Shown here: positions 46,678-64,000 of the stretch, one piece after another
Numbering within the stretch: the first letter of the stretch is position 1
How the letters are laid out: the number at the start of each line of letters is the position of its first letter
Source of the DNA: Eubacteriales bacterium
GTDB lineage: Bacteria > Bacillota > Clostridia > Oscillospirales > CAG-382
Length of the DNA: 64,000 nt
Assembly (NCBI GenBank): GCA_045540015.1
Contig: JAZQGP010000013.1
Location: 9,100 to 73,099, forward strand
Reading direction: 5' to 3'
Program-made: the position numbers and the translations under genes
Notes under the pieces: model-generated
Database searches by the model: none
Seen by the model: the letters and a program-made list of their open reading frames with translations, nothing else
Told to the model about the DNA's origin: nothing

Positions 46678-49495
46678 AAGCTTGAAAATAACGGGAGCGA
46701 GAGTTCACAACTTAAAAAACATTGATGTTGAGATTCCGAGAGACAAGCTTGTTGTTTTCACGGGACTTTCGGGTTCAGGAAAAAGCTCGCTTGCCTTTGA
46801 CACAATATATGCCGAGGGACACAGAAAGTTTGTTGAGTCATTGTCCTCCTATGCACGTCAGTTTCTCGGTCAGCTTGATAAGCCCGATCTTGACAACATA
46901 GAGGGACTTTCGCCTGCAATTTCAATAGACCAGAAAACTACATCACGCAATCCGCGTTCTACAGTTGGAACGGTAACCGAAATATATGACTACCTGCGTC
47001 TTTTGTACGCCCGTGTGGGAACACCTCATTGTCCTGTGTGCGGACGTGTTATAGAGAAGCAGTCCATAGACCAGATTGTTGATAAAATCTGCAACCTTCC
47101 CGAAGGAACAAAGTTTTATGTGCTTGCACCTGTTGTAAGAGGCAAGAAGGGTACACACGAAAAGCTGATTTCCGACACTCTTAAAAACGGTTACGTAAGG
47201 GCGAGAATCAACAGCGAGATTATAAGCCTTGAGGACAACATCGAGCTTGATAAGAATAAACGTCACAATATCGAAGTGGTTGTTGACAGACTCAGCATGA
47301 AGCCCGACATAAAATCGCGCCTTTCGGATTCGGTTGAAACGGCATTCAAGCTGTCAGACGGACTTTGCATAATTGCGCTTCACGAGGGCGAATACGAGGG
47401 TAAAAGCGAAATGCAGTTTTCGCAGAATTTTGCCTGCGTTGAGCACGGAATAAGCCTTGGCGAGCTTGAGCCGAGAATGTTTTCGTTTAACAGCCCGTTT
47501 GGCGCGTGTCCCGACTGTGACGGTCTCGGAGAAAGATTTGTCTTGTCCGAAGAAAAGCTGTTTCCCGACACGACGCTTTCTCTTGCAAAGGGAGCGTGCG
47601 TGTGCAACGGTTTTAAAAGCCTGAAGGACGATTCGTGGGGCAGTATAGGAATAAATACGGCTCTTGACGAATTCGGATATACAATTCATACTCCTTTGTG
47701 TGATATGTCGGAAAAGGCAAAAAAAGTGCTTTTCTACGGCAAAGGAGACGAAAGGATAAGATACGGATACCGAGGATACAATCTCAATTTCATCGGTATT
47801 ATCAAGGAAATACAGAGAAGATACGACCAGAACTACATGAATCCCGAAATGAGGGCGTATTACGAGCAGTTTATGCAGAATGTGCCGTGTTCCTCGTGTG
47901 AGGGTAAAAGACTCAAAAACGACTCTCTTGCCGTAACTGTCGGAGGACTTAACATTTATGAGGTCTGCTCACTTCCGATAGAAAAAGCACTTGAATTTTT
48001 CCAAAACTTAAAACTCGGAAAAACCGAAAGCGTGATTGCAAAGGAAATACTCAAAGAAATTCTTGCACGTCTCGGATTTCTTAAAAACGTAGGTCTTGGT
48101 TACCTTTCGCTTTCAAGAAAATCAGGGACACTTTCGGGCGGTGAGAGCCAGAGAATACGTCTTGCAACGCAGATTGGTTCTTCACTTATGGGTGTGCTTT
48201 ATATACTCGATGAGCCGAGTATAGGTCTGCATCAGCGTGATAACGCAAAGCTTATAACAACGCTTAAAAGCCTTCGCGACCTTGGCAACACAGTAATTGT
48301 TGTTGAGCATGACGAGGAAACAATGCGTGAAGCAGATTATATTGTTGATATAGGTCCGGGAGCGGGAGTACACGGCGGTAATGTCGTTGCAGCAGGAACG
48401 CCAAAGCAGATAGCTGCAAACAAAAACTCTGTTACGGGCGATTTCCTCTCAGGCAGAAGAAAAATTGCAATTCCGGAAAACAGACGCGTGGGCAACGGCA
48501 ATTTTGTGACTGTAAGAGGAGCACAGGAGCACAATCTTAAAAATATAGACGTTTCATTCCCGCTTGGAACTTTTACTTGTGTTACAGGTGTTTCGGGCTC
48601 AGGAAAAAGCTCGCTTGTAAATTCAATTCTTCTTACAAGCCTTGCAAAAACGCTCAACCGTGCATCAACGATTTCGGGAAAGCATGACTGCATAGAGGGT
48701 GCAGAGAATTTGGATAAGGTTATAGCCATCGACCAATCTCCGATCGGACGTATGCCAAGCTCAAATCCCGCAACGTATACAGGACTGTTTACGGAAATAC
48801 GCGCTTTATTTGCATCGACTCAGGGAGCAAAAATCAGAGGATATAAGCAGGATAGATTTTCCTTTAATCTTAAGGGCGGAAGATGCGAAGCGTGTAAAGG
48901 CGACGGAACACTGCTTATTGAAATGCATTTTCTTCCCGATGTGTATGTAACGTGTGATGTTTGTAAGGGCAAGAGATATAATCGCGAAACGCTTGAAGTA
49001 AAGTATAAGGGAAAGAGCATATCGGATGTTCTTGAAATGACGGTGTCGGAGGGATGCGAATTTTTCGAAAATATTCCGTCGATTTACAGAAAGCTCAAAA
49101 CGCTGCAGGACGTAGGACTTGGTTATATAAAGATAGGACAGCCATCGCCCACGCTTTCGGGCGGTGAAGCCCAGCGTGTAAAGCTCGCAACCGAGCTTTC
49201 AAAGCGTTCGACGGGAAAAACTCTGTACATTCTTGATGAGCCGACAACCGGTCTTCACACAGCGGATGTGGAAAAGCTCATTGAGGTTTTGCAGAAGCTT
49301 TGCGACGGCGGAAATACCGTTGTTGTCATTGAACACAATCTTGATATGATAAAGACCGCAGACTATATTATCGACCTTGGTCCTGAGGGCGGAGATATGG
49401 GTGGAACGGTAGTTGCAAAGGGAACGCCCGAACAGGTTGCAAAATGCGAAAAATCTTATACCGGTATGTACCTTAAAGAAATTTTGGAGAGATAA
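46667..49495 (+). CDS. uvrA: Excinuclease ABC subunit A
   Basis: [20 protein letters not shown], two ABC modules (LSGGE), zinc fingers. TTG start overlapping recG. Confidence 0.98.
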
Positions 49496-49533
49496 TCGCA
49501 AAACATTTTGAATATAGATAAGGATAGAATGAA

Positions 49534-51444
49534 TTGATTATTTTAAGTGCGTCGGACGTATCGCTTTCATTTGGTACGGACGTAATACTGACAAACATGA
49601 ACCTCGGCGTTAATGAGGGAGATAAAATAGGCATAGTTGGTGTCAACGGTGCCGGAAAATCGCTGTTCATGAAAATACTGTGCGGAGTACATGAGCCGAG
49701 TGATGGGCAGGTGTTTACGGCTAAAGATACGAGAGTGGGGTTCTTAGAGCAGAACACAGGTCTTGACTCCGATGGACGTATTTTTGATGAAATGTGCCTT
49801 GCGTTTCCTCATCTCGTTTCTGCTGAAAAGAGACTTTCAGAGCTTACCGAGCTTATGCAGTGTGAGCATGAACAGGAAAAGCACATGAGCCTTGCAAAAG
49901 AATACACCTCTCTTGAGGAACGCTTCAAAGAGGGCGGCGGATATGAGTTCAGAAGCAGAATTTCAAGTATGCTTTTGGGACTCGGCTTCGATAAATCAAC
50001 GCATGATATGTACATTCATGAGCTTTCTGGAGGACAGAAAACCCGTCTTGCCATTGCAAGACTTTTACTCAGTGAGCCTGATGTACTCATGCTCGACGAG
50101 CCGACAAACCATCTTGATATGGAAACCGTGACGTGGCTTGAAAACTATCTTGCCGGCTATAAAAAATCATTGATAGTTATATCCCATGACAGATATTTTC
50201 TTGATAAGGTTACGCAAAAAACGTATGAAATTGAAAACGGAGAGGGTAAACTTTATCCCTGCTCCTATACCGAATATGTAAAACGTAAAGAAGCCGACCG
50301 AAAGGCAGACGAAAAGCACTACAATCTGCAGCAGAAGGAAATAGCAAGACTTGAAGCGTTTATCGAAAATCAGAGACGCTGGAACAGAGAGAGAAACATA
50401 ATTGCCGCGGAAAGCCGCATGAAGGCAATTGACCGCATGGAAAAGCTTGACAAGCCAAAGAGCCTTCCGCAGAATATACGCTTTCGTTTTGAAATGGGTG
50501 AATACGGAAAATGCCCCGACAAGATGCTTGAGGTAACAGGGCTTTCGAAGGCGTTTCCCGGAAAGCCACTGTTTAATGACGTGTCTTTTCTGCTTCATGG
50601 CAGGGATAAAATGTTTATTCTCGGTCAGAACGGTGTGGGAAAATCCACAATGCTTAAGATTCTGTGCGGAAAACTCGGGCAGGATTTTGGCACGTTCGAG
50701 TATGCACGCGGTCTTGCCATAGGATATTATGACCAGGAGCATCAGGGACTTGATGCAAGCAATACGGTTATAGACGAGCTTTGGAACTGTTTTCCTGACA
50801 AGACACAGACAGAAATAAGAAGTGTGCTTGCAGGCTTTCAGTTTACAAGTGAAGATGTATTTAAAAGCATAGACGTTCTTTCAGGCGGAGAAAAGGCAAG
50901 ACTTACCTTTGCAAAGCTCATGCTTGAAAAGAGCGATTTACTTATACTTGATGAACCTACAAACCATCTTGATGCACCTTCGCGTGAAGTTTTGGAAAAC
51001 GCACTGTGCGAATACGACGGAACTGTTCTTTGTGTGTCACACGACAGATACTTTGTAAATAAGCTGGCAACACGCATTTTTGAAATGAGAACTGACGGAT
51101 GCTTTGATTTTGCGGGAAGCTATGAAGCGTTTCTTGAATACAAAAACAAAGCATCGGCAAAAAGCACCGTCGAAAGCAATGCTGCGTCAAATGCGAAGGC
51201 CGACTCGTCGGGAGATTACGAAAAGAACAAGGAAGAACGTAACCGCAGACGCAACACCGAAAGAAAACTTGCGGAAACCGAAAAGAAGATAGCTCAGCTC
51301 GAAGAAATGCTGTCCGAAAACGCACGTTTACAGCAGGAACTTTCGGGCGACTACGAAAAGGCGGCAAAGCTCTACGAAGAGGGAACTGCATTGGAAAACG
51401 AACTTTCGAAACTGTACGAGTTGTGGGAGGAATTGCAGAGTTGA
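49534..51444 (+). CDS. ABC-F family ATPase with C-terminal coiled coil (YdiF/Uup-like)
   Basis: Two NBDs with LSGG and LDEPTNHLD, linker, no transmembrane segments. Confidence 0.93.
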   Translation: MIILSASDVSLSFGTDVILTNMNLGVNEGDKIGIVGVNGAGKSLFMKILCGVHEPSDGQVFTAKDTRVGFLEQNTGLDSDGRIFDEMCLAFPHLVSAEKRLSELTELMQCEHEQEKHMSLAKEYTSLEERFKEGGGYEFRSRISSMLLGLGFDKSTHDMYIHELSGGQKTRLAIARLLLSEPDVLMLDEPTNHLDMETVTWLENYLAGYKKSLIVISHDRYFLDKVTQKTYEIENGEGKLYPCSYTEYVKRKEADRKADEKHYNLQQKEIARLEAFIENQRRWNRERNIIAAESRMKAIDRMEKLDKPKSLPQNIRFRFEMGEYGKCPDKMLEVTGLSKAFPGKPLFNDVSFLLHGRDKMFILGQNGVGKSTMLKILCGKLGQDFGTFEYARGLAIGYYDQEHQGLDASNTVIDELWNCFPDKTQTEIRSVLAGFQFTSEDVFKSIDVLSGGEKARLTFAKLMLEKSDLLILDEPTNHLDAPSREVLENALCEYDGTVLCVSHDRYFVNKLATRIFEMRTDGCFDFAGSYEAFLEYKNKASAKSTVESNAASNAKADSSGDYEKNKEERNRRRNTERKLAETEKKIAQLEEMLSENARLQQELSGDYEKAAKLYEEGTALENELSKLYELWEELQS

Positions 51445-51869
51445 TGTAAAAACATTACAACATCCCATAAAAGAACTAAAAAACGTTCAAAATATTGAAA
51501 ATGTCAAAATGTCCAACGCGTAGAAAATTTTTTCATCTAATTGTGAAACATGCACAAAAAAACAACCTATTTAGAGACGTTGCGGCAACAAATATTTAAC
51601 ATATTTTGTGCATCAACCGATACAAATAAATTGTTCCTTGCTTTGACATGAAATTTATAATTTACAAATTCGATAAATTTAAATCATGAAAATGCCTGAA
51701 AACGAAGGAACATCGTTAAAAACACGTGTAATCAATAAACTTAATCTTGTTATTTTGGCTAAAATCCCCTATGATTGTAATTTACTGACAAATTGTCAAA
51801 CACATTTTCGACACCGCTTTTAAACTTCGTAAGGTTGTGCCGGAAAGGCGGAGTGAGTGAAATCTTCTA

Positions 51870-51898
51870 TTGACAAACTTTGCTTGAGTTGGTATACT
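51870..51898 (+). promoter_or_regulatory. SigA promoter of the glycan-uptake operon
   Basis: TTGACA-17 nt-TATACT with extended TG. Confidence 0.75.
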
Positions 51899-52036
51899 AT
51901 AATCATATAAATGGGGGATTTATGCCCTTTTTTAGGGGATTGGTATGTCGTTTTGGCATAATAATTCTTTGAGAGAGGTAACAAAAATGACCTCATATTT
52001 ATGGCAATTCTCAATCAGGTAGGAGGAAATCAGCAG

Positions 52037-55000
52037 ATGAAGATTGCAAAAAAACAGAGCAGGCTTGTAGTTTCTTTCATTATTATAAGTATGCTCCTGC
52101 AGGCATTCGTAAGTGTATCTGTTTTTGCTCAGCCCGAAACTGAGGCTGATACTGTTCTTATTGAAGAAACTGTATCTGTCGAAGACGACGGTGTAACAAG
52201 AACGCTCAACTCGCTTAACGAAATGGCAGACCTTATGGTCTCCACCACCTACGCCGAATATCTCGGGCTTTACGGAGATACTCCCAAGGCCACCCAGGAG
52301 ATAGTTATCAAGGCGGTTGACTATGATGCGGAAAAAACAACTGCACAGGTCAAAGTAGTAGAAGACAGCGAAAAGGGCGAAACCCTTTGGGCTCCCGATA
52401 CAGGAAAAACTGTCTATACGGTAGAGATTCCCGAAACGGGAATGTACGCAATGACGGTTGACTATTATCCTTGTGAGGGTAACGGTTCCAATATTGAGCG
52501 TGTTCTTCTCATTGACGGAAAGGTTCCGTTTGCTGAAGCGCGTTATATCAACTTTACACGCGTATGGGGCGATAAAGAGGATGAGAACTACAGCAAAATC
52601 GAGCGTACCTTCAAGAAGGACTTTAACGGAAACGAAATGCGTCCCGTAAAGTATGAAACTCCTGAATGGAGAAGTGAGGAGATTTATGACTCTGAAACCT
52701 TCTTCTCGACTCCTCTTGAGTTTTATCTTGAAAAGGGAACTCATACAATTGCGTTTGACGCAGCGTGCGAGCCTCTCCAGACAAGTGAAATTCGTTTGCA
52801 TCCCGCAACTACGTATATTTCTTATGAAGAATATGCTGCACAGCATGCCGACAAATCGGCTCCCAAGGATGCTGAAACCATCTACATAAACGCTGAAACT
52901 CCGGTTGCTACGAGTGAACAGGTTCTCTATGCGATGAATGACCGTACAAGCGGTATCACCGAGCCTCAGAGCACCTCGGCAACGCTTCTTAATACCATCG
53001 GCGGTAACGGCGGTGACAAGTGGAAGATTTCCGGTCAGTGGATAAAGTACGACTTTGACGTTGAAAAGGCGGGCATGTATGATATCGTGCTTCGCTTTAA
53101 GCAGACCGTAAACCAGGGTCTTTTCTCGTCACGTGCAATTAAGATTGACGGTGACTATCCCTTTGAAGAAGCAAAGCAGCTCCAGTTCCAGTATAATGCC
53201 GACTGGCAGGTTGACTCGCTTAACGACGGTACAACGCACTTCAGCTTCTACCTTGATGAGGGACACCATACAATCGAATTTAAGACTGTTCTCGGTGATA
53301 TGGCAAACGTACTCAATACCATCAACGACAGCCAGACAAGACTTAATGAGTATTACAGAAAGATACTTATGATTACAGGCTCCGATCCTGATGAGTATAC
53401 CGACTACGAGTTTGCAAAGCTTATTCCCGAGGTTCTCAGAGGTATGAGAGACGAAGCAAAGCTTCTTTATGATGTTTCTGCAGAGCTTGAAGCAAAGATT
53501 GGTTCAAAGGGTCAGAACACAGTTATTCTTGACCGTGTTGCGTTCCTTCTCGAAACAATGGGTAACGACCAGGATAAAATTGCAACCAACCTTTCAAACT
53601 ATAAGAGTAACATAGGTTCACTCGGTACATGGCTGCTCACCACAAAGGGACAGCCCCTCCAGCTTGATTACATAAAGGTTCAGCCTAAAGGCAGTGCTCT
53701 TCCTAAGGCTAATACCAATTTCTTTGAAGCAATGGCTCACGAAATCGGCTCTTTCTTCATGTCGTTCTTCACCGACTATAACTCACTCGGTGCAAGCAAG
53801 AAGATTGAAGAGGACGACCCCGATGTTGTTGAGGTTTGGGTTACAACCGGTCGTGACCAGGCACAGATCATGCGCCAGATGGTTGACGACAGCTTTACGG
53901 CTGAAACGGGAATCGCAGTTAACTTAAAGCTTATAGCGGCAGGTACACTTCTTCCCGCAACGCTTGCAGGTGTTGGTCCTGACGTTTCAATGGACGGCGA
54001 CCCTGTTGGCTTTGGTATAAGAAATGCGGTTATTCCCGTTAACTACTTCTCTGATTTTGAAACAGAAGTAAAACCGCTCTTCAATGATGAGCAGTTCGTT
54101 CCGCTGACAGTGCTTGACCCTGACAGAATCGAATATGCCGACGGAACAACCGGTGACCAGTTTGACGAACAGAAGGAATATAAGGTAGTAGACGGAATTG
54201 AAAGAAACGGTGTTGTAACGTACGGTATTCCTTCCACACTCGACCTTCCTATGCTGTTCTATCGTAAGGATATCTTCGTTGACCTCGGTCTTGAAGTCCC
54301 TGAAACATGGGACGACGTTGAAGCCATTATTCGTGCTTTGTCCGAGAACCAGATGGAAATGGGCTTCTCCCAGGCCATGACCCAGATTTATATGTATCAG
54401 AACGATATAGAATGGTTTAAGTCAAGCTACGATTACGAAGGTGTAACCGGCGACAGAACCGACAGAGAATATATGCGTACAGTAGGTATTCAGACAAACC
54501 TTGACTGTAATGAAGCTCTCGATGCATTCCAGAGAATGACCGAATGGTTCACTCTTTACGGCGAGCCTATTACCTACGACTTTGCAAACCGCTTCAGAAC
54601 GGGTGAAATGCCTATCGCGATTGCAAACTATACTACATATAACCAGCTTAAAGTATTTGCTCCCGAAATTGCAGGTCTGTGGGAATTTGTTCAGCTTCCC
54701 GGTGTTAAACGTGAAGACGGAAGCATAAACCACACTTCTCCCATCACTCCTCATGCCATGATGATGATGAGGGATGCCGCAAACGACATTTCCGACAAAC
54801 AGGACGTTACCGAGTCTCCCAAGGCTAAGAAGGCATGGGAATACCTCAAGTGGTGGGTAAGCACTCCGACACAGGAGCGTTTCGGTAAGGAACAGGTTGC
54901 TATCATGGGTACGGCTGCAAAGTATAACACAGCTAACATTGCAGCACTTACCGGTCAGTCCTGGACGGCTCAGGAAAAGAGAAACCTTGAACAGCAGTTT

Positions 55001-55234
55001 AAATCACTCAAGGGTACGCCGATGTCTCCCGGTAACTACATCGTTGCAAGATATACAAACTTTGCGTTCTACGCAGTTGTCGATGACGATGAGGTTGCTT
55101 CCGAGGCAATGCTCGGCTATGTTGACGATATAAACCACGAGCTCTCAAGAAAAAGAGACGAGTATGGCTTCCTTACTATGGAAGAATATACCGAAGAGCT
55201 TGCTGCTAAGGGCATAGAGGTTAAAGCGTCATAA
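52037..55234 (+). CDS. Giant (~1065 aa) extracellular solute-binding protein with N-terminal CBM-like domains
   Basis: Sec-type signal (..VSVFA); two beta-sandwich-like units (ETGMYAMTVDY..FYLEKGTHTI; KAGMYDIVLRF..FYLDEGHHTI); family-1 SBP motifs (GRDQAQI, GPDV, MLFYRKDIF, PETWDD, FRTGEMPIAI). Confidence 0.88.
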   Translation: MKIAKKQSRLVVSFIIISMLLQAFVSVSVFAQPETEADTVLIEETVSVEDDGVTRTLNSLNEMADLMVSTTYAEYLGLYGDTPKATQEIVIKAVDYDAEKTTAQVKVVEDSEKGETLWAPDTGKTVYTVEIPETGMYAMTVDYYPCEGNGSNIERVLLIDGKVPFAEARYINFTRVWGDKEDENYSKIERTFKKDFNGNEMRPVKYETPEWRSEEIYDSETFFSTPLEFYLEKGTHTIAFDAACEPLQTSEIRLHPATTYISYEEYAAQHADKSAPKDAETIYINAETPVATSEQVLYAMNDRTSGITEPQSTSATLLNTIGGNGGDKWKISGQWIKYDFDVEKAGMYDIVLRFKQTVNQGLFSSRAIKIDGDYPFEEAKQLQFQYNADWQVDSLNDGTTHFSFYLDEGHHTIEFKTVLGDMANVLNTINDSQTRLNEYYRKILMITGSDPDEYTDYEFAKLIPEVLRGMRDEAKLLYDVSAELEAKIGSKGQNTVILDRVAFLLETMGNDQDKIATNLSNYKSNIGSLGTWLLTTKGQPLQLDYIKVQPKGSALPKANTNFFEAMAHEIGSFFMSFFTDYNSLGASKKIEEDDPDVVEVWVTTGRDQAQIMRQMVDDSFTAETGIAVNLKLIAAGTLLPATLAGVGPDVSMDGDPVGFGIRNAVIPVNYFSDFETEVKPLFNDEQFVPLTVLDPDRIEYADGTTGDQFDEQKEYKVVDGIERNGVVTYGIPSTLDLPMLFYRKDIFVDLGLEVPETWDDVEAIIRALSENQMEMGFSQAMTQIYMYQNDIEWFKSSYDYEGVTGDRTDREYMRTVGIQTNLDCNEALDAFQRMTEWFTLYGEPITYDFANRFRTGEMPIAIANYTTYNQLKVFAPEIAGLWEFVQLPGVKREDGSINHTSPITPHAMMMMRDAANDISDKQDVTESPKAKKAWEYLKWWVSTPTQERFGKEQVAIMGTAAKYNTANIAALTGQSWTAQEKRNLEQQFKSLKGTPMSPGNYIVARYTNFAFYAVVDDDEVASEAMLGYVDDINHELSRKRDEYGFLTMEEYTEELAAKGIEVKAS

Positions 55235-55271
55235 ACATTACATTATTACATATAATCAAGGAGTGAAATAA

Positions 55272-56228
55272 ATGTCAGAAAAAGCTGTTCAGAAGCCGCA
55301 AGCGGCTCCAAAGCTCAGAAAAGATATGACAAAGTGGCAGTGGACACTCCGTGAAATGAAGGTCAATAAGGTCGGTTACGTAATGGTAGCTCCTTACTAT
55401 CTTATATTCTTCACCTTCACGGTTATCCCGGTATTTGTATCCCTGCTTCTCAGCCTTACACAGTTCAATATGCTTGAAATGCCTGTTTTTGTAGGCGCAA
55501 GCAACTACATAAGACTTCTTCTGGATGATGATATCTTCCTTACTGCATGTAAGAATACATTGATATTTTCAACTATGACAGGTCCTGTATCGTACCTGCT
55601 CTGTCTTATGTTCGCATGGTTCATCAATGAACTGACTCCCAAAATTCGTGCGGTTGTTACACTTATCTTCTATGCACCGAGTATCTCCGGTCAGGTATAC
55701 CTCATCTGGCAGACTCTGTTCTCCAGTGACCAGTACGGCTGGGTAAACGGTACCCTTATGAAGCTTGGTATAATCAACGCACCAATTCTCTGGTTCCAGG
55801 ACACAGACTACATCATGACACTTGTTATCGTAGTTGCTCTTTGGACGAGTCTCGGTACTTCGTTCCTGTCCTTCATTGCGGGCTTCCAGGTTGTTGATAA
55901 GTCCCTCTATGAAGCGGCAAGCGTTGACGGCGTCAGAAACCGTTGGCAGGAGCTTTGGTATGTAACACTTCCTGTTATGAAAAACCAGATGATGTTCGCA
56001 GCTATCATGTCAATCACCGGCGCTTTCGGATTCGGTGCTGTCGTTACGGCACTTTGCGGATTCCCGTCTGTTGACTACTGCGCACATACAATCATGCACC
56101 ATCTTGACGACTACGGCGGACAGCGCTGGGAGGTCGGATATGCATCCGCGATTGCTACAATTCTGTTTGCAATCATGATAGGTGCAAACCTTGCTATTAA
56201 TAAATTACTGTCGAAGGTAGGTAAATGA
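55272..56228 (+). CDS. Carbohydrate ABC permease (MalF/UgpA-like)
   Basis: FVGASNY, EAA loop LYEAASVDG, GYASAIA. Confidence 0.93.
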   Translation: MSEKAVQKPQAAPKLRKDMTKWQWTLREMKVNKVGYVMVAPYYLIFFTFTVIPVFVSLLLSLTQFNMLEMPVFVGASNYIRLLLDDDIFLTACKNTLIFSTMTGPVSYLLCLMFAWFINELTPKIRAVVTLIFYAPSISGQVYLIWQTLFSSDQYGWVNGTLMKLGIINAPILWFQDTDYIMTLVIVVALWTSLGTSFLSFIAGFQVVDKSLYEAASVDGVRNRWQELWYVTLPVMKNQMMFAAIMSITGAFGFGAVVTALCGFPSVDYCAHTIMHHLDDYGGQRWEVGYASAIATILFAIMIGANLAINKLLSKVGK

Positions 56229-57097
56229 CGATGAAACTTCCAAAAATCAAACGACGTTCATTTAACCGATCCGTCGGCGGTGACGTTGGTATCAATGTCC
56301 TTCTTATTATCTTCGGCGCATTCATGTTCCTTCCGATGGTATACGCGGTTTCTCAGTCGCTAAAGCCTCTTGATGAACTCTGGATGTTCCCGCCGAGATT
56401 CTTCGTGCGTAACCCCACTCTTCTGAACTTCTCAGACCTTTTCAGACTCATGGGTGAGTCCTGGATTCCGTTCTCAAGATACATATTCAATACCGCACTC
56501 GTTTCAGTCGGCGGCACTTTCGGTCACCTGTTCCTTGCTTCAATGGCGGCTTATGCCATGACCAAGATTAATTTCCCCGGTCGCAAGGCAATGTTCCAGA
56601 CTGTATACTACTCGCTGATGTTCCATTCCACAGTATCCTCCATCTCAAACTTCATTATCATGTCAGCTCTCGGATGGATTGATACATACTGGTCTCTTAT
56701 CGTTCCCGCATTCGGCTATACTCTCGGTTTCTACCTCATGAGGCAGTTCATGGAATCGACAGTTCCGGATTCGGTTCTCGAGTCTGCAAGACTTGACGGT
56801 GCTAAAGAGCTTACGATTTACTGGAAGATAGTAATGCCTATGGTAAAACCAGCGTGGCTGACACTTATCGTTTACTCCTTCCAAGGTCTGTGGAACAGCG
56901 GTACTTCAATCTATATCTACAGTGAACAGCTTAAAACCTTTAACTACGATATTCAGCAGATTCTTGCCGGCGGTATCGTACGAAGCGGTGCGGCAGCGGC
57001 TTCAACCGTTATCATGATGCTCGTTCCTGTTTCGGTATTCGTTGTTACTCAGAGTAACATCATCGAAACAATGGCAAGCTCGGGTATGAAGGACTAA
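56225..57097 (+). CDS. Carbohydrate ABC permease (MalG/UgpE-like)
   Basis: SLKPLDEL, AAYA, LESARLDGA, IVMPMVKPA. Confidence 0.93.
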   Translation: MTMKLPKIKRRSFNRSVGGDVGINVLLIIFGAFMFLPMVYAVSQSLKPLDELWMFPPRFFVRNPTLLNFSDLFRLMGESWIPFSRYIFNTALVSVGGTFGHLFLASMAAYAMTKINFPGRKAMFQTVYYSLMFHSTVSSISNFIIMSALGWIDTYWSLIVPAFGYTLGFYLMRQFMESTVPDSVLESARLDGAKELTIYWKIVMPMVKPAWLTLIVYSFQGLWNSGTSIYIYSEQLKTFNYDIQQILAGGIVRSGAAAASTVIMMLVPVSVFVVTQSNIIETMASSGMKD

Positions 57098-57115
57098 GTA
57101 AGGAGGAGAATCAGA

Positions 57116-59356
57116 ATGAAAAATATAAAAAGAATACTTCTCCTTGTTATGTGCCTTGTAATGCTCGTTGGCACAATACCTACAGGAGCAATTATCCCGT
57201 ATTCAACATATACATATGATATTGACGGAAACTATGTTGAGTCTCCTCATGCATATGTTCCGTATGAAGTAATCACTTCAAAGACACTCGGTCTTGAGGT
57301 TGAAATTGCAAGTCCCTATGACATGTGTACAGGTCGTTCCTATTACATGAATGACGCTGTGAAGACTTTCTACTGGGACAGAATGGTTTATATCTCCGAC
57401 GGAGATAATCAGAGAGTTATCGCTCTTGAATACAGCGACGAAACAAATACGTTTGAGTATAAGTATGAAATGACGGAATTCATCAATAACTGGGGTGTTC
57501 CGGATGCGATTGCTTCTCCTCGCGGTCTTTATGCAACCGACGAAGAACTGTATGTGTGCGATACCGACGCAAACAGAATTCTCGTTTTTGCTACACATAA
57601 CCACCCTGAGTATGAAGAAGGCGAGTTTATAAGAATTATCGCTGAGCCTCAGAGTGAAGTTTTTCCCGATGACCATATTTATAAGCCGATAGCTGTTGCA
57701 GTAAGCTCTTCGGGATATACATATGTTGTATCCTCAACAACTTATCAGGGTATTATTTCCCTTAACAGCGACGGTGAATTTGCAGGATTTATCGGAACTC
57801 AGTCCCAGTCTCTTTCTCTTATGGATATGATCTGGAGACGTTTCCAGACTGCAGAACAGAAGAGCAAATCCGTAAAGAACGTATCTGTTGAGTTCAACAA
57901 CCTCAACATCAACGAAAAGGGCTTCGTTTACGCAACAACGGCATCCATAAATGAGGATGACCTTATGGGCGCCATTCAGTCAAAGAGTACCGCAAGTGAC
58001 TACGCTCCAGTTAAGATGCTTAACCCAAGCGGTACAGACGTTATGAAGCGTTCGGGCTTCTATCCGCCTGCAGGCGAAATAAACGTAAACCTTCAGCAGA
58101 CTCCAGATTATAACATCACCGGTCCTTCGACTATCAACGACGTTGCTCTCGGCCCGGAAGGAACCTGGTCTGTAACAGACGCAAAGCGTCAGAAGATATT
58201 CACCTATGATGAAGACGGAAACCTCCTCTTTGCATTCGGTGATAAGGGTAGTCAGCTCGGTAATATTACAGGTATTCAGGCTATAGACTATGCTTATGAT
58301 AACCGCGATCCCGAAAACGCAATCAACTATATGCTCGTTCTTGATAAGGAAAACGATGCAATAACCATTTATAAGAGAACCGCATACGGCGATATCCTTG
58401 TTAAGGCACTTAAGAATCAAAGAGACAGAAACTTTGACCTTGCGGCCGATGACTGGAAGGAAATTCTCCGTAGTAACTCAAACTTCGACATGTCCTATAT
58501 CGGTATCGGTAAGAGCCTTTACCGTCAGGGCGAATATGAAGAAGCTATGGATATGTACAAATATGCATACGACACAACAAACTATTCCGAAGCCTGGCAG
58601 CAGGTAAGAAAAGAATGGGTTGAAAAGTATGCAATTGTAGTTCCGATAGTTGTTGTTATATTCTTTATCATTCTCGGAAAAATCTTCAAGTACGCAAAGA
58701 AGGTTAACGACGCAGGACTTGCGCTCAAGCTTAAGCGTTCGCTTAAGGAAGAGGTTATGTACGGCTTCCATTCCATGATGCATCCGTTCGACGGATACTG
58801 GGATATCAAGCACGAGCACAGAGCCTCCGTAAAGGGTGCAACATTTATTCTTGCACTTGTTATTTTGACATTCATTTACAGCTCAATAGGTAAAGCATAT
58901 ATTCTCGATCCGCATCCCACAGAAGTTAACATCATTGTTATGATACTTTCGATATTGCTTCCTGTTATGCTTTGGGTTATAGCAAACTGGTGTCTGACAA
59001 CGTTGTTTGACGGTGAAGGAAGCATTCGCGATATATATATTGCAACCTGTTACTCGCTGTTCCCGCTTCCCGCGTTCTTTGTTATAACAACTCTTCTTTC
59101 TAACATTGTAACAGTGGACGAAGCATCTCTCCTTACCCTTGCAATGGGCGTTGCCTTCTTCTGGGTGGGCTTCCTGCTCTTCTTCGGAATGATGGTAATT
59201 CACGACTACACGCTGTTTAAGAACATGCTTACCGTTATTGCCTCTATTGTAGGTATGGCGTTCATCATGTTTATAGCAGTGCTGTTCTCAAGCCTGCTCG
59301 GTAAAATTGTATCGTTTATCGGCAGTATCATAACCGAGCTTTCGTACCGAATGTAA
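57116..59356 (+). CDS. Secreted NHL-repeat beta-propeller + TPR + Yip1-type multi-pass membrane domain fusion
   Basis: Signal peptide; YISDGDNQRV and LYVCDTDANRILVF (NHL); YIGIGKSLYRQGEYEEAM (TPR); HPFDGYWDIK and NWCLTTLFDGEG plus ~5 hydrophobic helices (Yip1-like). Confidence 0.82.
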   Translation: MKNIKRILLLVMCLVMLVGTIPTGAIIPYSTYTYDIDGNYVESPHAYVPYEVITSKTLGLEVEIASPYDMCTGRSYYMNDAVKTFYWDRMVYISDGDNQRVIALEYSDETNTFEYKYEMTEFINNWGVPDAIASPRGLYATDEELYVCDTDANRILVFATHNHPEYEEGEFIRIIAEPQSEVFPDDHIYKPIAVAVSSSGYTYVVSSTTYQGIISLNSDGEFAGFIGTQSQSLSLMDMIWRRFQTAEQKSKSVKNVSVEFNNLNINEKGFVYATTASINEDDLMGAIQSKSTASDYAPVKMLNPSGTDVMKRSGFYPPAGEINVNLQQTPDYNITGPSTINDVALGPEGTWSVTDAKRQKIFTYDEDGNLLFAFGDKGSQLGNITGIQAIDYAYDNRDPENAINYMLVLDKENDAITIYKRTAYGDILVKALKNQRDRNFDLAADDWKEILRSNSNFDMSYIGIGKSLYRQGEYEEAMDMYKYAYDTTNYSEAWQQVRKEWVEKYAIVVPIVVVIFFIILGKIFKYAKKVNDAGLALKLKRSLKEEVMYGFHSMMHPFDGYWDIKHEHRASVKGATFILALVILTFIYSSIGKAYILDPHPTEVNIIVMILSILLPVMLWVIANWCLTTLFDGEGSIRDIYIATCYSLFPLPAFFVITTLLSNIVTVDEASLLTLAMGVAFFWVGFLLFFGMMVIHDYTLFKNMLTVIASIVGMAFIMFIAVLFSSLLGKIVSFIGSIITELSYRM

Positions 59357-59376
59357 GAATGAAAGGAGTAATGAAA

Positions 59377-62300
59377 ATGAAATTCAGAAATACAATATGT
59401 TACATTCTTTCGTTCCTGCTTATCTTCTCGGTTTTATCGCCTTGCATGATTGCAGGTGCTGATGAAACCGAAGAAAAAACCGAGGCAGCCGAAACTACCG
59501 AAAATGCCGAAACCGCTGAAACCGCCGAAGAGGCCGAAGGTGAAGAAAAAGCCGAAGGTGAAGAAGGCGAAGGTGAAGAAGGCGAAGAGGAAGAAGAAGG
59601 CTACCAGCTTACGAGAGATTATATCAAGGAAGCCTATGTAAACGAAGAGCATAAGCTTTCCACAATGACAATGTACTTTGAGGATGATAAGTACGAAATC
59701 TGGGGTCTTGAAGAGACAGGTGAAGTTGCATTCCGCGTTAAGGAAACAGGACAGATACTTCTCACCAACCCCTATGATGTCCCCACCTCAAAATCCTCAG
59801 ATGCAGTAAAGTCAGACCTTCTTTCTCAGATTATGATGACCTATAAGGATAGCGGCGGAGCAATTGTAAACTTCAACAGCTATACCGATGCTGCTTCCAA
59901 CGGCCAGATTAAAATGACAAAGACAAGACAGGGCCTAAGAGTTGACTACACCCTCGGTAAGGAACAGTCAAAATACCTCGTTCCTAAGCAAATCGAGAGA
60001 AGCAGCTTTGAAGAGAATATTCTTTCTTATTTTGAAGATACAACATCCCGTGAGTATAAGCAGCTTACAGCTTATTTCTCACTCCAGGACCCGTTTGATC
60101 CTACAATTCCCGACAGTATTCTCACATCGATGAAGGTTAAGTGGCCTATCACCGAGAAGTATGCAATCTATGTTCTTGACAGCGGTATCTCAAACCGTGA
60201 GCTTGAAGTGCTTGAAGGTTACATCAAGGGTAACACCGAGTACACAGAAGACATGATGACTGCGGACTACGAGCTTATAGATTATGTGGATACTTCCGCA
60301 GCACCTGCTCTTTTCCGTTTTGCTATCGAATACAGCCTTGATGACAACGGCATCAAGATAAGAATGCCCGCAACAAGCATCAAGTATGACTCTTCAAACT
60401 ACTCGCTCCAGAATGTTCGTTTGCTTCCTTACTTCGGTGCCGGCAGCAACGAAAACATTGGATTTACAATGGTTCCCGACGGATCGGGCACAATCACAAG
60501 ATTTGAAGAAATCGGAGCAAAGGCATTCAACCTTACAGGTAAGCTCTACGGACGTGACTATTCCTTCCATACTATTGCAGGATATACTCAGGAAACAATG
60601 CGTATTCCCGCATACGGTGTAATTGAAAGTGCACCACATGAAGAATGGATACCCGAGCCTGAGGAACCGGAAGAAACTTCGAAAGATGTAACAGAAGAAG
60701 CTGCAGCAGAAGGTGAAGAAGCTGCTGAGACAGCAGAAACTGAGATAGCTCCGGCGGATAGTACAGAAGCTGCTGAGTCTGAACAGGATGCTCAGACAGA
60801 GGCGGATGCTGAAGTTGAAGTTGAAGCTGACGCCGAGGAAGACAATGAAACAGTGCAGGCTGATACTGAAGAAGCAACTGAAGAAACAGTAGAAGAAACA
60901 GTAGAAGAAACTGTTGAGGAAACTGCAGAAACAGAGGACGAAGCGAGCACTGAACCCGTAGTAATAAGAAAGGGTTATGTTGCATACCTCGAAGAGGGCG
61001 ATGCAATGGCAGAAGTAACTGCAAGCCACGGCGGTAACGCTCACAAGTACAGCTCAGTTTACTCCACCTTCTATCCAAAGCCTACAGATACATATTATCT
61101 TACCGGTATTTCTTCAACGGGTAGTGCTTCCTGGTCGGTAACCAGCGAAAGAAAGTACACAGGTAACTATACAATCCGTGTGTTCCCGCTTTACGGTGAC
61201 GATATTGATTATACGGATATGGCTGTTGAGATAAGAAATTATCTTGAAAAGAACGGCGTTCTTTCCAGAATCAAGTCTGATGAAGAAGCAACAGACGATG
61301 TTCCGCTTTATGTTGAAAACTTCGGTACAATCGAAACTCAGCAGAAGATAGCAGGCTTCCCCGTTGATGTTCAGACTCCTCTTACCACTTTTGAACAGAC
61401 ACAGAACATGATTACAAAGCTCAAGGAACAGGGCGTAGGAAACCTTAATGTGAAGCTTACTGGCTGGTATAACGGCGGTATGATTCATACAGCACCTTCA
61501 AAGCTCAAGGTTGAGTCTGCGCTTGGAGGAAAGAAAGGACTTCGTGAGCTTACGGAATTTGCCAATGAAAACAAGGTTGGCATTTACCCCGACATAGACT
61601 TTACGTATGTTGATACCTTTGGCTCGCTTGACGGCTTCAACTATAAGGATCATTCGGTAAAGACAATTGACGGAAGAAGTGCTTCTCACAGAATTTACAA
61701 CGCCTTGTATCAGGGCTTTGAGGATGACGAAAGTCTTATAATAGCGCCTCCTGCAATGGCAGAGTTCTATGAAAAGATTGAAAAGAAGTATACTGAGCTT
61801 GGCGCAACCGGTATTTCGGTCGGAACACTGGGATATGACCTCAACTCTGACCATAACGAGGATTACACACTCACACGTGAGGATGCTAAGGATTATATCT
61901 CAGGCTTCCTCGGCGATCTTGATGAGTCAGCGGGAAGTGTTATGATTGACGGCGGTAATGCATACGCACTTCAGTATGCAGACCATATTCTCGGAGTACC
62001 GCTTGACAGCAGTCTTAATATCAACACAAGCGTTTCCATTCCCTTTATGGGCATGGTTCTCCACGGATATACACAGTTTACGGGAACTGCACTCAACCTT
62101 GACGGTGACTATGAGTACAGCATGCTCAAAGCTATGGAAAACGGTGCAAGCCTGTACTTCATGCTTTCCATGGAAAACACATCAGAGCTTAAGGCGTTCC
62201 CGCAGTTCAGTAAGTATTATGCTATCCAGTATGATATCTGGGAGCCTAAGCTTATTGAAACCTATAACACTTTCAACGACGCAATGAAGCGCGTTAAGTA

Positions 62301-62451
62301 TTCGCTTATAACCGAGCATGAGTATCTCGGAACAAGAATTGTTCGAGTTGCATACGATAACGGCACAGAGTTTGTTCTTAACTACAATACCCATGACGTT
62401 ACGCTTGACGACGGAACAACTGTCGAAGCTATGAGCTTCGCGGTAAGATAA
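59377..62451 (+). CDS. Large secreted DUF5696-type protein with acidic low-complexity inserts (ORF track start 59359)
   Basis: Signal peptide; LLPYFGA, VPDGSG, TPLTTFEQ, TGWYNGG, LGGKKGL, GGNAYAL, IPFMGMVLHG motifs. Confidence 0.78.
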   Translation: MKFRNTICYILSFLLIFSVLSPCMIAGADETEEKTEAAETTENAETAETAEEAEGEEKAEGEEGEGEEGEEEEEGYQLTRDYIKEAYVNEEHKLSTMTMYFEDDKYEIWGLEETGEVAFRVKETGQILLTNPYDVPTSKSSDAVKSDLLSQIMMTYKDSGGAIVNFNSYTDAASNGQIKMTKTRQGLRVDYTLGKEQSKYLVPKQIERSSFEENILSYFEDTTSREYKQLTAYFSLQDPFDPTIPDSILTSMKVKWPITEKYAIYVLDSGISNRELEVLEGYIKGNTEYTEDMMTADYELIDYVDTSAAPALFRFAIEYSLDDNGIKIRMPATSIKYDSSNYSLQNVRLLPYFGAGSNENIGFTMVPDGSGTITRFEEIGAKAFNLTGKLYGRDYSFHTIAGYTQETMRIPAYGVIESAPHEEWIPEPEEPEETSKDVTEEAAAEGEEAAETAETEIAPADSTEAAESEQDAQTEADAEVEVEADAEEDNETVQADTEEATEETVEETVEETVEETAETEDEASTEPVVIRKGYVAYLEEGDAMAEVTASHGGNAHKYSSVYSTFYPKPTDTYYLTGISSTGSASWSVTSERKYTGNYTIRVFPLYGDDIDYTDMAVEIRNYLEKNGVLSRIKSDEEATDDVPLYVENFGTIETQQKIAGFPVDVQTPLTTFEQTQNMITKLKEQGVGNLNVKLTGWYNGGMIHTAPSKLKVESALGGKKGLRELTEFANENKVGIYPDIDFTYVDTFGSLDGFNYKDHSVKTIDGRSASHRIYNALYQGFEDDESLIIAPPAMAEFYEKIEKKYTELGATGISVGTLGYDLNSDHNEDYTLTREDAKDYISGFLGDLDESAGSVMIDGGNAYALQYADHILGVPLDSSLNINTSVSIPFMGMVLHGYTQFTGTALNLDGDYEYSMLKAMENGASLYFMLSMENTSELKAFPQFSKYYAIQYDIWEPKLIETYNTFNDAMKRVKYSLITEHEYLGTRIVRVAYDNGTEFVLNYNTHDVTLDDGTTVEAMSFAVR
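60868..60927 (+). repeat. Five 12-bp tandem repeats encoding EEAT/EETV/EETV/EETV/EETA
   Basis: gaagaagcaact gaagaaacagta gaagaaacagta gaagaaactgtt gaggaaactgca. Confidence 0.85.
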
Positions 62452-62469
62452 GGAAGGGGTGCAGCTAAA

Positions 62470-63423
62470 ATGAATAAATCAGTAACAAAGGCAAAAAAGC
62501 CCGCATCTCTTGACAAAAAGAAGGCCAGAGGCGGATGGTGGTTCGTTCTTCCGTTCGTAATAGGTTTTGTAGTGCTTTATCTGCCTATGCTTTATAAATC
62601 TATAGAATTTTCCTTTAGTGAAATAACCATTATCCCCAAAGGCGGATACACTCTTGAATTTATAGGCTTTGAAAACTATCAGGAGGCCCTTTTCTCGGAC
62701 GCAGCGTACCTGAGAATACTCACCTCCAGCATAAAGCAGCTCGTTCTTGACGTTCCTGCAATTGTTATCTTCTCACTGTTCATGGCTATCGTTCTTAATC
62801 AGAAGATGTTCGGTAGAGCAGTGTTCAGAGCAATATTCTTTATTCCCGTTATTCTTACAACCGGTCTTATCGACTCCATTGACCAGAGCAATGCTGCAAT
62901 GGACTACATGAGCTCAGGCGGTATTGATACGGGCGCAGGATCCGGAAACGGAGCAAATGATATTATTAATGCCATGGATGTTACGGCACTGCTCGGAAAC
63001 ATGGTGGTAGGTACAGAGCTTGTTGAATACGTTGTAGGAGTTGTTAATAACATCTTCAACATAGTAAACCGTTCAGGTGTACAGATGCTTATATTCCTTG
63101 CAGGTCTTCAGTCTATCTCGCCCTCTATTTATGAGTCGTGTAAGATGGACGGTGCTTCCGGCTGGGAAACCTTCTGGAAGATAACCTTCCCGATGATAAG
63201 CCCGATGATTCTTGTTAATACGGTTTATACTGTTATAGACTCGTTCACCTCCGAATCGAACTCGGTTATGAGATATATCAATGCGGTGTATGAAGGAACA
63301 ACCAAAAACTCCCGAGAGCTCAGCTCTGCGATGTCATGGCTGTACTTCCTGATTGTACTTGCACTCATTGGCGGTGTTGCCGCACTCATTTCAGCGTTCG
63401 TATTCTACCAGAGACGAGATTAA
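62470..63423 (+). CDS. Second carbohydrate ABC permease (MalF-like)
   Basis: FIGFENY, FRAIFFIPVI, IFLAGLQSI, IYESCKMDGA, ITFPMISP. Confidence 0.93.
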   Translation: MNKSVTKAKKPASLDKKKARGGWWFVLPFVIGFVVLYLPMLYKSIEFSFSEITIIPKGGYTLEFIGFENYQEALFSDAAYLRILTSSIKQLVLDVPAIVIFSLFMAIVLNQKMFGRAVFRAIFFIPVILTTGLIDSIDQSNAAMDYMSSGGIDTGAGSGNGANDIINAMDVTALLGNMVVGTELVEYVVGVVNNIFNIVNRSGVQMLIFLAGLQSISPSIYESCKMDGASGWETFWKITFPMISPMILVNTVYTVIDSFTSESNSVMRYINAVYEGTTKNSRELSSAMSWLYFLIVLALIGGVAALISAFVFYQRRD

Positions 63424-63437
63424 GGAGGGATAACGTA

Positions 63438-64000
63438 ATGAATAAAACAGGAACCAAGCAACTTTCCAGAAAAGATATGAAAATCGAATTCGAGGGAAAA
63501 GTGGGCTTCTGGACAAGACTTAAGCTTAAGCTCTTCTCAGCAGCATTCCTCGGAAAACTGGTTTACGTTATTTTCCGCTTTGTACTTCTCGTTGGTATTT
63601 CCTACATCATACTTTACCCGTTCTTCACAAAGATTATGGCGTCCTTTATGAGCACGTCCGACTTCGTTGACGTAACGGTAAAGCTGATTCCCAGAAATCC
63701 CACTCTTGACCAGTGGAAATTCATCATACTTGAAAACAAGTATTTCACAGCACTTTTCAATACCGCCCGTGTATCGGTACTTTGCGGATTTTTCCAGACA
63801 CTTATTTGTGCGATTGTCGGATACGGTTTTGCGAAGTTTAAGTTTAAGGGAAGAAATATTCTGTTCTTTGCGGTAATTATCACACTTCTTATTCCGCATG
63901 ACACACTTCTTCTTGCTATGTTCATGCAGTTCAGATATTTTGATATTTTCGGGATTTTCGGACTGTTTACAGCCGGACAGGGCATCAACCTTATAAACAC
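63438..64000 (+). CDS. Second MalG-like carbohydrate ABC permease, 3'-truncated (not in the ORF track)
   Basis: RBS AAGGAGG, ATG 63438. Translates MNKTG..ISYIILYPFF..LIPRNPTL..VGYGFAKFKFKGRNILF; open to the window end. Confidence 0.88.
   Translation, partial: MNKTGTKQLSRKDMKIEFEGKVGFWTRLKLKLFSAAFLGKLVYVIFRFVLLVGISYIILYPFFTKIMASFMSTSDFVDVTVKLIPRNPTLDQWKFIILENKYFTALFNTARVSVLCGFFQTLICAIVGYGFAKFKFKGRNILFFAVIITLLIPHDTLLLAMFMQFRYFDIFGIFGLFTAGQGINLIN

Follow-up and report, generated by a model that had tools for sequence, protein, structure and literature searches.

A conserved seven-gene operon with two CUT1-type permease pairs, a Yip1-family protein and a glycosidase-like DUF5696 protein: a probable common sugar gateway in an Eubacteriales bacterium

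In Gram-positive bacteria of the gut and rumen, glycan fragments enter the cell mainly through ATP-binding cassette (ABC) sugar importers, which are thought to need just a solute-binding protein (SBP), two permeases and an ATPase. A stretch of 64,000 nucleotides from an Eubacteriales bacterium (contig JAZQGP010000013.1, positions 9,100 to 73,099 of the forward strand; C13:9100-73099 of this genome, G000), which we call the window at its full length, ends in a gene cassette with two permease pairs, a giant SBP and two further large proteins, and the question that this locus raises is what the second permease pair and the two additional proteins are for. An initial annotation had proposed one surface machine in which a single SBP feeds both channels. 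Our analysis suggests instead that the operon probably encodes two importers of the carbohydrate uptake transporter 1 (CUT1) type, which would be energised by an orphan ATPase and would act as a common gateway for the giant SBP encoded in cis and for other SBPs encoded in trans. The cassette adds two large, conserved and unstudied proteins to a channel of this kind. In agreement with the initial annotation, no mechanistic description was found in print for 'DUF5696', 'PF18952' or Yip1 together with ABC or SBP, in a literature search that lay outside supplements, and by this search the three large surface proteins of the cassette are unstudied.

Gene content, conservation and modularity of the cassette

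The cassette comprises seven co-oriented genes on the + strand, seen among the open reading frames (ORFs) of 48000-64000 and, for the end of the last gene, further along the contig; they extend from 52037 to about 64454, 454 bases beyond the window end. All the ORFs were present, tightly packed and in the order that had been read initially.

52037-55234, + strand: giant SBP, 1065 aa from the start used in the initial annotation
55272-56228, + strand: F1, MalF/UgpA-like permease with an EAA loop (Pfam, NCBIfam, ortholog alignment)
56225-57097, + strand: G1, MalG/UgpE-like permease with an EAA loop (Pfam, NCBIfam, ortholog alignment)
57116-59356, + strand: NHL/TPR/Yip1 protein, 746 aa (Pfam, family profile)
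59359-62451, + strand: DUF5696 protein, 1030 aa (Pfam, model, fold match)
62470-63423, + strand: F2, divergent MalF-like permease with an EAA-like loop (Pfam, NCBIfam, ortholog alignment)
63438-64000 in the window, stop at 64454 (L001:2554), + strand: G2, MalG-like permease with an EAA loop
64488-64517 in window numbering: terminator hairpin, 12-bp stem and T-rich tail, 3' of G2

The spacing along the cassette was 37, -4, 18, 2, 18 and 14 nt. G2 is truncated by the window edge, and its probable start at 63438 was taken from the ortholog alignment. The terminator is followed by LexA (L001:2698-3390) and then by housekeeping genes, indicating that the operon consists of exactly seven genes. When the contig was read beyond 64000, no ATPase, regulator or annotated glycoside hydrolase (GH) was seen flanking the operon on either side, so the earlier statement that it lacks an ATPase and a regulator in cis also held past the terminator and up to LexA.

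All four permeases gave BPD_transp_1 matches above the Pfam cut-off and had EAA-type loops conserved across 87-100 sequences. Their nearest NCBIfam relatives were UgpA/E and MalF/G, all of them under the equivalog cut-offs, and F1 and F2, as well as G1 and G2, invariably fell into separate ortholog groups.

The cassette is common: 35 of the 401 sampled genomes of the phylum scored above the DUF5696 cut-off, and a pattern scan of species-representative genomes yielded 388 stretches encoding a DUF5696 relative. Soil and thermophilic Firmicutes are also among its carriers. Gene order was counted with phmmer, using the seven window proteins, in the best 80 of these 388 stretches, all of which came from metagenome-assembled genomes (MAGs) of gut or rumen Clostridia. 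Of these 80 loci, 66 had the identical seven-gene order and 14 were subsets truncated by contig ends, a conservation far above chance expectation, which bore out the initial impression that this order recurs between genomes. The median identity to the window proteins, calculated from 82 complete loci, was 68% for F1, 68% for G1, 65% for F2, 58.5% for G2, 51% for the NHL/TPR/Yip1 protein (YIP), 43% for the giant SBP and 42% for the DUF5696 protein (DUF).

In a distant set of 20 loci, obtained out of 16 phylum-sampled genomes, the standard order was found in 13, the halves were swapped (YIP-DUF-F2-G2, then SBP-F1-G1) in four, and YIP-DUF-F2-G2 was present without the other half in three. One genome with loci of this last kind (G054) had F1 orthologs (56-57% identity) on different contigs. 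The swapped order, the solitary second half and the arrangement in G054 together show that the operon is built from two units that can be separated, called here module A (giant SBP-F1-G1) and module B (YIP-DUF-F2-G2).

Individual loci showed further variation. In a complete genome (G132, L093:3862-6721) G1 was found in two pieces about 1.6 kb apart, with a 167-aa ORF without Pfam family between them, and this gap may reflect an insertion by which module A is disrupted. A divergent locus with module B only (G350, L097:11460-14675), which also has GH16 and a LuxR-type regulator, carried HlyD-type and MacB-type genes between the DUF5696 gene and F2. An Omp85/POTRA gene was located two genes 3' of a complete cassette in G341 (L096:15274-17088), suggesting that the cassette occurs also in an outer-membrane bacterium.

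The giant SBP becomes a 1077-aa protein when an alternative ATG at 52001 is used as the start; orthologs nevertheless align from residue 13. In the 1077-aa numbering, it is composed of two beta-sandwiches (about 100-270 and 290-430), a helical bundle (434-549) and a MalE-type SBP domain (555-1077), with an N-terminal hydrophobic helix in which the lipobox Cys is absent, and it is conserved across 84 orthologs. The protein itself matched no family in Pfam or NCBIfam and gave only weak sequence matches in the PDB (E 1.7e-5), whereas a six-frame search of the genome placed SBP_bac_1 at this position (E 7.4e-11), and the C-terminal half of its AlphaFold model (39 sequences; predicted local distance difference test, pLDDT, 85.4; predicted template modelling score, pTM, 0.81) resembled MalE-type sugar SBPs (E 2.6e-15, TMt 0.70-0.76). 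The protein had been described as an SBP extended by carbohydrate-binding modules (CBMs). The MalE-type fold of the model supported the SBP part of this description. For the two N-terminal beta-sandwiches, 'CBM' is a plausible label: this region had a weak GH115_C match (Pfam E 0.069) and matched, in the ESM Atlas, unnamed clusters as well as a GH115_C cluster with a score of 0.85, to be taken as a lead only. Both the giant SBP and the DUF5696 protein are probably signal-anchored in the membrane.

Permease, ATPase and binding-protein inventories of the genome

The cassette contains the only carbohydrate-type ABC permeases found in this genome, and the same was observed in its genus mates G405 and G408. 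BPD_transp_1 gave only 8 matches in the whole genome, of which four correspond to the cassette, two to PotB/PotC with PotD, and two to non-sugar systems, the first a permease accompanied by an ATPase and an SBP of family 3 (amino-acid-type), the second a single permease with an ATPase. The permease pair on contig C30 was considered as a third sugar channel and was rejected, as it is the PotB/PotC pair with PotD, and phmmer searches with the cassette proteins detected no further relative in the genome. Likewise, G405 (98% complete) and G408 (95% complete) had 8 permease matches each, 4 of them in the cassette, and SBP_bac_1 matches on contigs without a permease match.

A single ATPase bearing the OB_MalK domain was found in the genome (contig C11, 371 aa; NCBIfam UgpC E 5e-149, MalK 6e-128). 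Its gene sits in a housekeeping context, between metK and a phosphoglycerate mutase gene. In addition, the genome encodes six SBP_bac_1 lipoproteins of about 475 aa, with a mutual identity of 59-82% and all with a lipobox, and no permease gene lies alongside any of the six.

C28 (L111:435-5296): three tandem small SBPs
C34 (L112:7171-10174): two small SBPs
C13:225.5k (L114:7545-8963): single small SBP

The single gene on C13 is located just downstream, and on the same strand, of genes for a 1007-aa protein of unknown family and a GH38 alpha-mannosidase. No NCBIfam family names the six trans SBPs, the giant SBP or the DUF5696 protein. The giant SBP was also evaluated as a paralog of the six small ones and this was rejected, BLASTP giving short matches only, with E 0.02 or worse.

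At 14 of the 20 distant loci the cassette has an ordinary SBP (435-594 aa) as its neighbour, and in L100, which has module B only, a small SBP is encoded immediately 3' of G2. When one of the trans SBPs was used as query against 5 distant genomes, its best match was the cassette-adjacent small SBP in all five, and in two of them this was the sole match. The trans SBPs therefore belong to a cassette-linked family, and the 'extra' permease pair is probably served by binding proteins of its own that are encoded in trans, which removes the need for one SBP to feed both channels. With the two halves separable and a second SBP family present in trans and at distant cassettes, the machine with one SBP that had been proposed initially appears unlikely.

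Another SBP gene was seen on contig C33 (L113:3023-6080), where the gene of a 454-aa SBP_bac_8 protein precedes that of a 557-aa protein carrying a LuxR/GerE DNA-binding domain; these two may form a sugar-sensing pair, rather than include a transport SBP.

According to the arrangement that we favour, module A would consist of the membrane-tethered giant SBP and channel F1-G1, and module B of channel F2-G2 and two fixed accessories, the NHL/TPR/Yip1 and DUF5696 proteins, both anchored in the membrane. Both channels would most likely be driven by the single orphan MalK/UgpC-type (MsmX-like) ATPase on the other contig. Placed among housekeeping genes, the cassette would probably be the common sugar gateway of the bacterium and of its genus, with substrate choice coming from the giant SBP and the six lipoprotein SBPs, some of them encoded beside glycan enzymes such as GH38. 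As the cassette appears to be the sole sugar ABC gateway in the genus, its accessories may be required for the greater part of carbohydrate uptake. If this model is true, the substrate range would be set by exchanging small SBP genes and not whole transporters, the way in which uptake capacity is inferred from genomes would change, and the cassette would be a single point for genetic tests of carbohydrate uptake.

The likeness to CUT1 importers such as MalEFGK2 and the MsmX systems of Bacillus subtilis lies in the two BPD_transp_1 permeases with EAA loops for each channel, the MalE-fold SBP, and the lack of an operon ATPase together with a single MalK/UgpC-type ATPase elsewhere. In contrast to those systems, the cassette has two permease pairs per operon, a 1065-aa SBP with extra domains, two large fixed accessories and six SBP paralogs away from the channels. 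Several binding proteins are known to share one ABC translocator in the case of HisJ and LAO with HisQMP, and of AmiA/AliA/AliB with AmiCDEF, systems that carry amino acids or peptides; judging by gene inventories only, small SBPs encoded apart also appear to feed one permease set here. MsmX is reported to be shared among importers (PMC5730181, PMC7658222).

The accessory proteins of module B

The 746-aa protein is predicted to contain a signal peptide, an NHL beta-propeller outside the cell, TPR and, at its C-terminus, a Yip1 membrane domain. Yip1 (PF04893) matched residues 552-721 with an E-value of 1.2e-13 (51.8 bits vs a cut-off of 28.6), while the NHL match of the single sequence was barely above its cut-off (21.3 vs 20 bits) and the TPR match was also weak. 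The profile built from 29 orthologs, however, matched designed NHL 'Pizza' propellers in the PDB with an E-value of 4e-40, the PknD sensor domain with 5.5e-20 and TRIM71 with 1.7e-20, as well as TPR proteins, and the NHL-TPR-Yip1 fusion described in the initial annotation was thus supported at the family level. In 6 of the 20 distant loci this protein is encoded by two genes, one for the propeller/TPR part and one for Yip1.

In a fold test, the Yip1 domain (residues 495-746) was modelled together with F2 and G2, using a separate alignment for each chain. The interface reached an ipSAE of 0.60 (0.60, 0.58 and 0.61 in the runs) against 0.01 for the best control, a result graded as weak support; the runs shared at least 83% of contacts and the partner pLDDT was at least 69. 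Of the physical complex that had been proposed initially, one pairing is thus weakly supported, and docking of the Yip1 domain on F2-G2 within the membrane, with the propeller held above the channel, is probable. A precedent for a Yip1-family accessory of an ABC transporter is YknW of the Bacillus transporter YknWXYZ, which is reported to modulate the assembly of this transporter (PMC4887032). In both cases a Yip1-family membrane protein travels with an ABC transporter. In contrast to the type I importer of the cassette, YknYZ is an exporter of the MacB type that has a membrane-fusion protein and, unlike YknW, the Yip1 domain of the cassette bears an extracellular region of about 500 aa with the NHL propeller and TPR.

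The 1030-aa protein, described as DUF5696-like in the initial annotation, matched DUF5696 (PF18952, E 1.5e-151, 506 bits vs a cut-off of 25.6). The protein is organised as an N-terminal membrane helix, acidic linkers, a GH129-like N-domain, a TIM barrel and a C-terminal beta domain. Its two acidic linkers (residues 25-80, window 59431-59598, and residues 436-530, window 60664-60948) are of low complexity and rich in E, T and A; they are predicted to be disordered in the structural model (36 sequences, pLDDT 75.3) and account for most of the variation in ortholog length, which goes from about 720 to 1290 aa. The model resembled DagB (5OPQ) with a VIA Z of 29.4, a root-mean-square deviation of 4.4 over 579 aligned residues and a Foldseek E-value of 1.4e-28, and NagBb (5WZN) with a VIA Z of 27.5, 569 aligned residues and a Foldseek E-value of 1.6e-21. 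These matches spanned all three domains (model residues 104-1030), and the next fold tier (GH36-like, GH101 and GH13) had a Z of 19.6 or less. The predicted structure thus points to the three-domain architecture of GH129 and GH129-like enzymes, as seen in NagBb, an alpha-N-acetylgalactosaminidase of GH129, and the GH129-like 3,6-anhydro-D-galactosidase DagB. Unlike these two enzymes, to which it is 15-17% identical, the DUF5696 protein is membrane-anchored, has acidic linkers, gives no PF11308 match and is variable at the position equivalent to the acid/base, and its gene is always inside a transporter cassette.

At the sequence level, a search of the PDB gave borderline NagBb matches only (E 0.014 and 0.036), and the protein did not match PF11308 (Glyco_hydro_129) even at E-values up to 10. 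Full-length hhalign against GH129 aligned the C-terminal domain alone, with a probability of 2%, whereas the alignment restricted to the barrel gave an E-value of 6.9e-5 and a probability of 63%; the C-terminal part of PF18952 also matched true GH129 genes of other genomes. The earlier statement that the operon has no hydrolase needs correcting, because the DUF5696 protein has the shape of a complete GH129-like glycosidase, with catalytic residues that are not clearly kept.

Most likely, the DUF5696 protein binds oligosaccharide near the channel, and it is less likely that it cleaves or trims it. The alternative that it is an active surface enzyme, a retaining alpha-glycosidase or transglycosylase with a non-canonical catalytic pair that would trim or debranch oligosaccharides at F2-G2 and would make module B an enzyme-coupled importer, is possible although doubtful. 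In 100 family members, with identities down to about 21%, D831 was kept in 95, R840 in 99, N867 in 97, H902 in 95, N913 in 99 and E927 in 99. Besides the full architecture and the barrel alignment, this alternative has on its side D831, together with D374 (97%) and D400 (96%) in the N-domain. The 33 residues from D831 to the GGN motif are near the 31 from Asp486 to Glu517 in DagB, and the window protein carries Asp at 831 and also at 864. However, position 864, which lies opposite the Glu of the GH129 'SEGGN' motif, was D in 36, S in 32, E in 15 and N in 8 members, so that only 51 of the 100 have D or E, and it switches to N or S even between orthologs that are at least 60% identical. As reference for the comparison we used the GH129 catalytic Asp of NagBb, Asp435 at the end of beta-4, and its acid/base Glu, which we take to be Glu478; in the hhalign alignment the beta-4 Asp fell opposite position 822, occupied by A, S or G, with D831 nine residues downstream. 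These positions were mapped by motifs and profile alignment and not by structural superposition. Furthermore, the family occurs in xylan, mannan, alpha-mannoside, pectin and beta-glucan loci, which have no obvious alpha-linked sugar in common. Shifted catalytic residues do have a precedent, since DagB and NagBb have a single catalytic Asp in common and a further essential Asp of DagB is supplied by the N-domain of the partner monomer (PMC5698469).

A divergent true GH129 gene is also present in this genome (C13:285187-286137; L110:1396-3090, minus strand; PF11308 E 5.6e-21, 564-aa ORF). The C-terminus of its product resembled the DUF5696 model weakly (E 1.9e-4).

A more far-reaching proposal, which we put forward tentatively, is that module B represents a new class of ABC importer. 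The Yip1-anchored propeller and the glycosidase-derived protein would be obligatory extracytoplasmic subunits of F2-G2, which would accept either oligosaccharide-loaded lipoprotein SBPs or the glycan chain directly and pass the substrate to the channel; one channel would then serve many interchangeable SBPs, as the single oligosaccharide gateway of small-genome gut Clostridia.

Genomic context and alternative explanations

The surroundings of the cassette differed between the clade of the window and the distant loci. In 22 examined loci of the clade, none of 73 flanking ORFs was a GH, a polysaccharide lyase (PL), a CBM or a LacI/AraC regulator; an ABC-F gene was found upstream in 10 and LexA downstream in 4. 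In the window, UvrA and an ABC-F protein are encoded 5' of the cassette (46667-51444, Pfam). The recurrence of the ABC-F and LexA flanks in related MAGs suggests that the position of the cassette among DNA-repair genes is old in this clade. The upstream ABC-F protein was evaluated as the transporter ATPase and was rejected, since it has the ABC-F domain set (ABC_tran_Xtn, ABC_tran_CTD). In contrast, ten distant loci had GH38, GH26 with CBM35, GH35 with a glycoamylase-like protein, GH10, GH130 or GH43 with CBM6 nearby, and others had a pectate lyase with GH106, GH31 with an apiosidase-like protein, GH3 with GH10, PL14, GH2/GH3, GH26 with CBM27, or GH16. LacI or AraC regulators were present in distant glycan loci around the cassette, and in one locus (L087) a MalK-type ATPase directly adjoins it.

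Several observations weigh against the cassette being a gateway made of two importers. The inventories come from a 57-contig draft genome that is 94% complete, and the three-SBP array on C28 is 434 nt from the contig edge, so that permeases could lie beyond it. Two other members of the genus had more permease matches, 10 in G410 and 14 in G402, and the sole-gateway state is therefore not universal. The trans SBPs show a modest resemblance to the small SBPs linked to the cassette (E 1e-14 to 1e-18, 23-32% identity), and in G054 small SBPs of the same family were also found near module A genes, which makes their assignment to F2-G2 over F1-G1 uncertain. In addition, the Yip1/F2-G2 score was graded weak and came from self-made alignments, outside the calibration of the tool; the mark used was attained by 116 of 157 solved complexes and by 2 of 215 mismatched pairs, and scores of 0.60 or lower among those passing it belonged to just 18 of the 157 solved complexes and to both mismatches. 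Finally, the conserved polar pocket of the DUF5696 protein (D831, N867, N913 and E927) occurs in loci for chemically unrelated glycans, which suits neither an enzyme with a specific substrate nor a simple lectin.

The other explanations have to account for the same data. All seven products could be parts of a single surface complex, with the CBM-bearing giant SBP and both large ectoproteins capturing polysaccharide for the two channels as a Gram-positive counterpart of SusC/SusD. The rigid gene order in the window's clade, the presence of one SBP only in cis, the prediction that all three large proteins are membrane-tethered and extracellular, and the weak docking of Yip1 on F2-G2 in the fold test would agree with such a complex. 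We consider it unlikely, however, given the modules found swapped or without module A, the location of module A elsewhere in G054, and the second SBP class at most distant loci and in six copies in this genome. The likeness to SusC/SusD of Bacteroidota, which had been suggested initially, was reduced to one of task, that is, glycan capture at the surface coupled to import: here an outer membrane and a TonB-dependent barrel are both absent, an ABC ATPase would supply the energy, and no SusC/SusD-type family was found among the Pfam matches of the seven proteins, which comprised only BPD_transp_1, Yip1, NHL, TPR and DUF5696. Still less probable, in our opinion, is that the cassette serves the cell envelope in this clade, recycling or remodelling wall or capsule glycans of the bacterium itself instead of importing nutrients. 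This would account for its housekeeping location, given the UvrA/ABC-F and LexA flanks and a housekeeping context at all 22 examined clade loci with no adjacent GH or sugar regulator, and a near-consensus promoter-like site would also suit it. Against an envelope role, the distant cassettes lie within plainly catabolic glycan loci with their regulators, one trans SBP gene adjoins the GH38 alpha-mannosidase gene on the same strand, and the channels of the cassette are the only sugar ABC channels found in what is a gut fermenter.

In the region upstream of the giant SBP gene, no cre-like catabolite site was detected by regular expression in 51445-52100, and no Rfam family matched in 51300-64000, including the leader hairpin. 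The promoter-like site is a consensus match only, as 3 such sites were seen vs 2.8 expected in shuffled sequences, and it is followed by a long hairpin in the leader.

51870-51898, + strand: promoter-like site, TTGACA, 17 nt spacer and TG-extended TATACT, 11 of 12 matches
51905-52040, + strand: leader that folds into a long hairpin (none of 200 shuffles equally stable; -35.5 kcal/mol, z -2.9)

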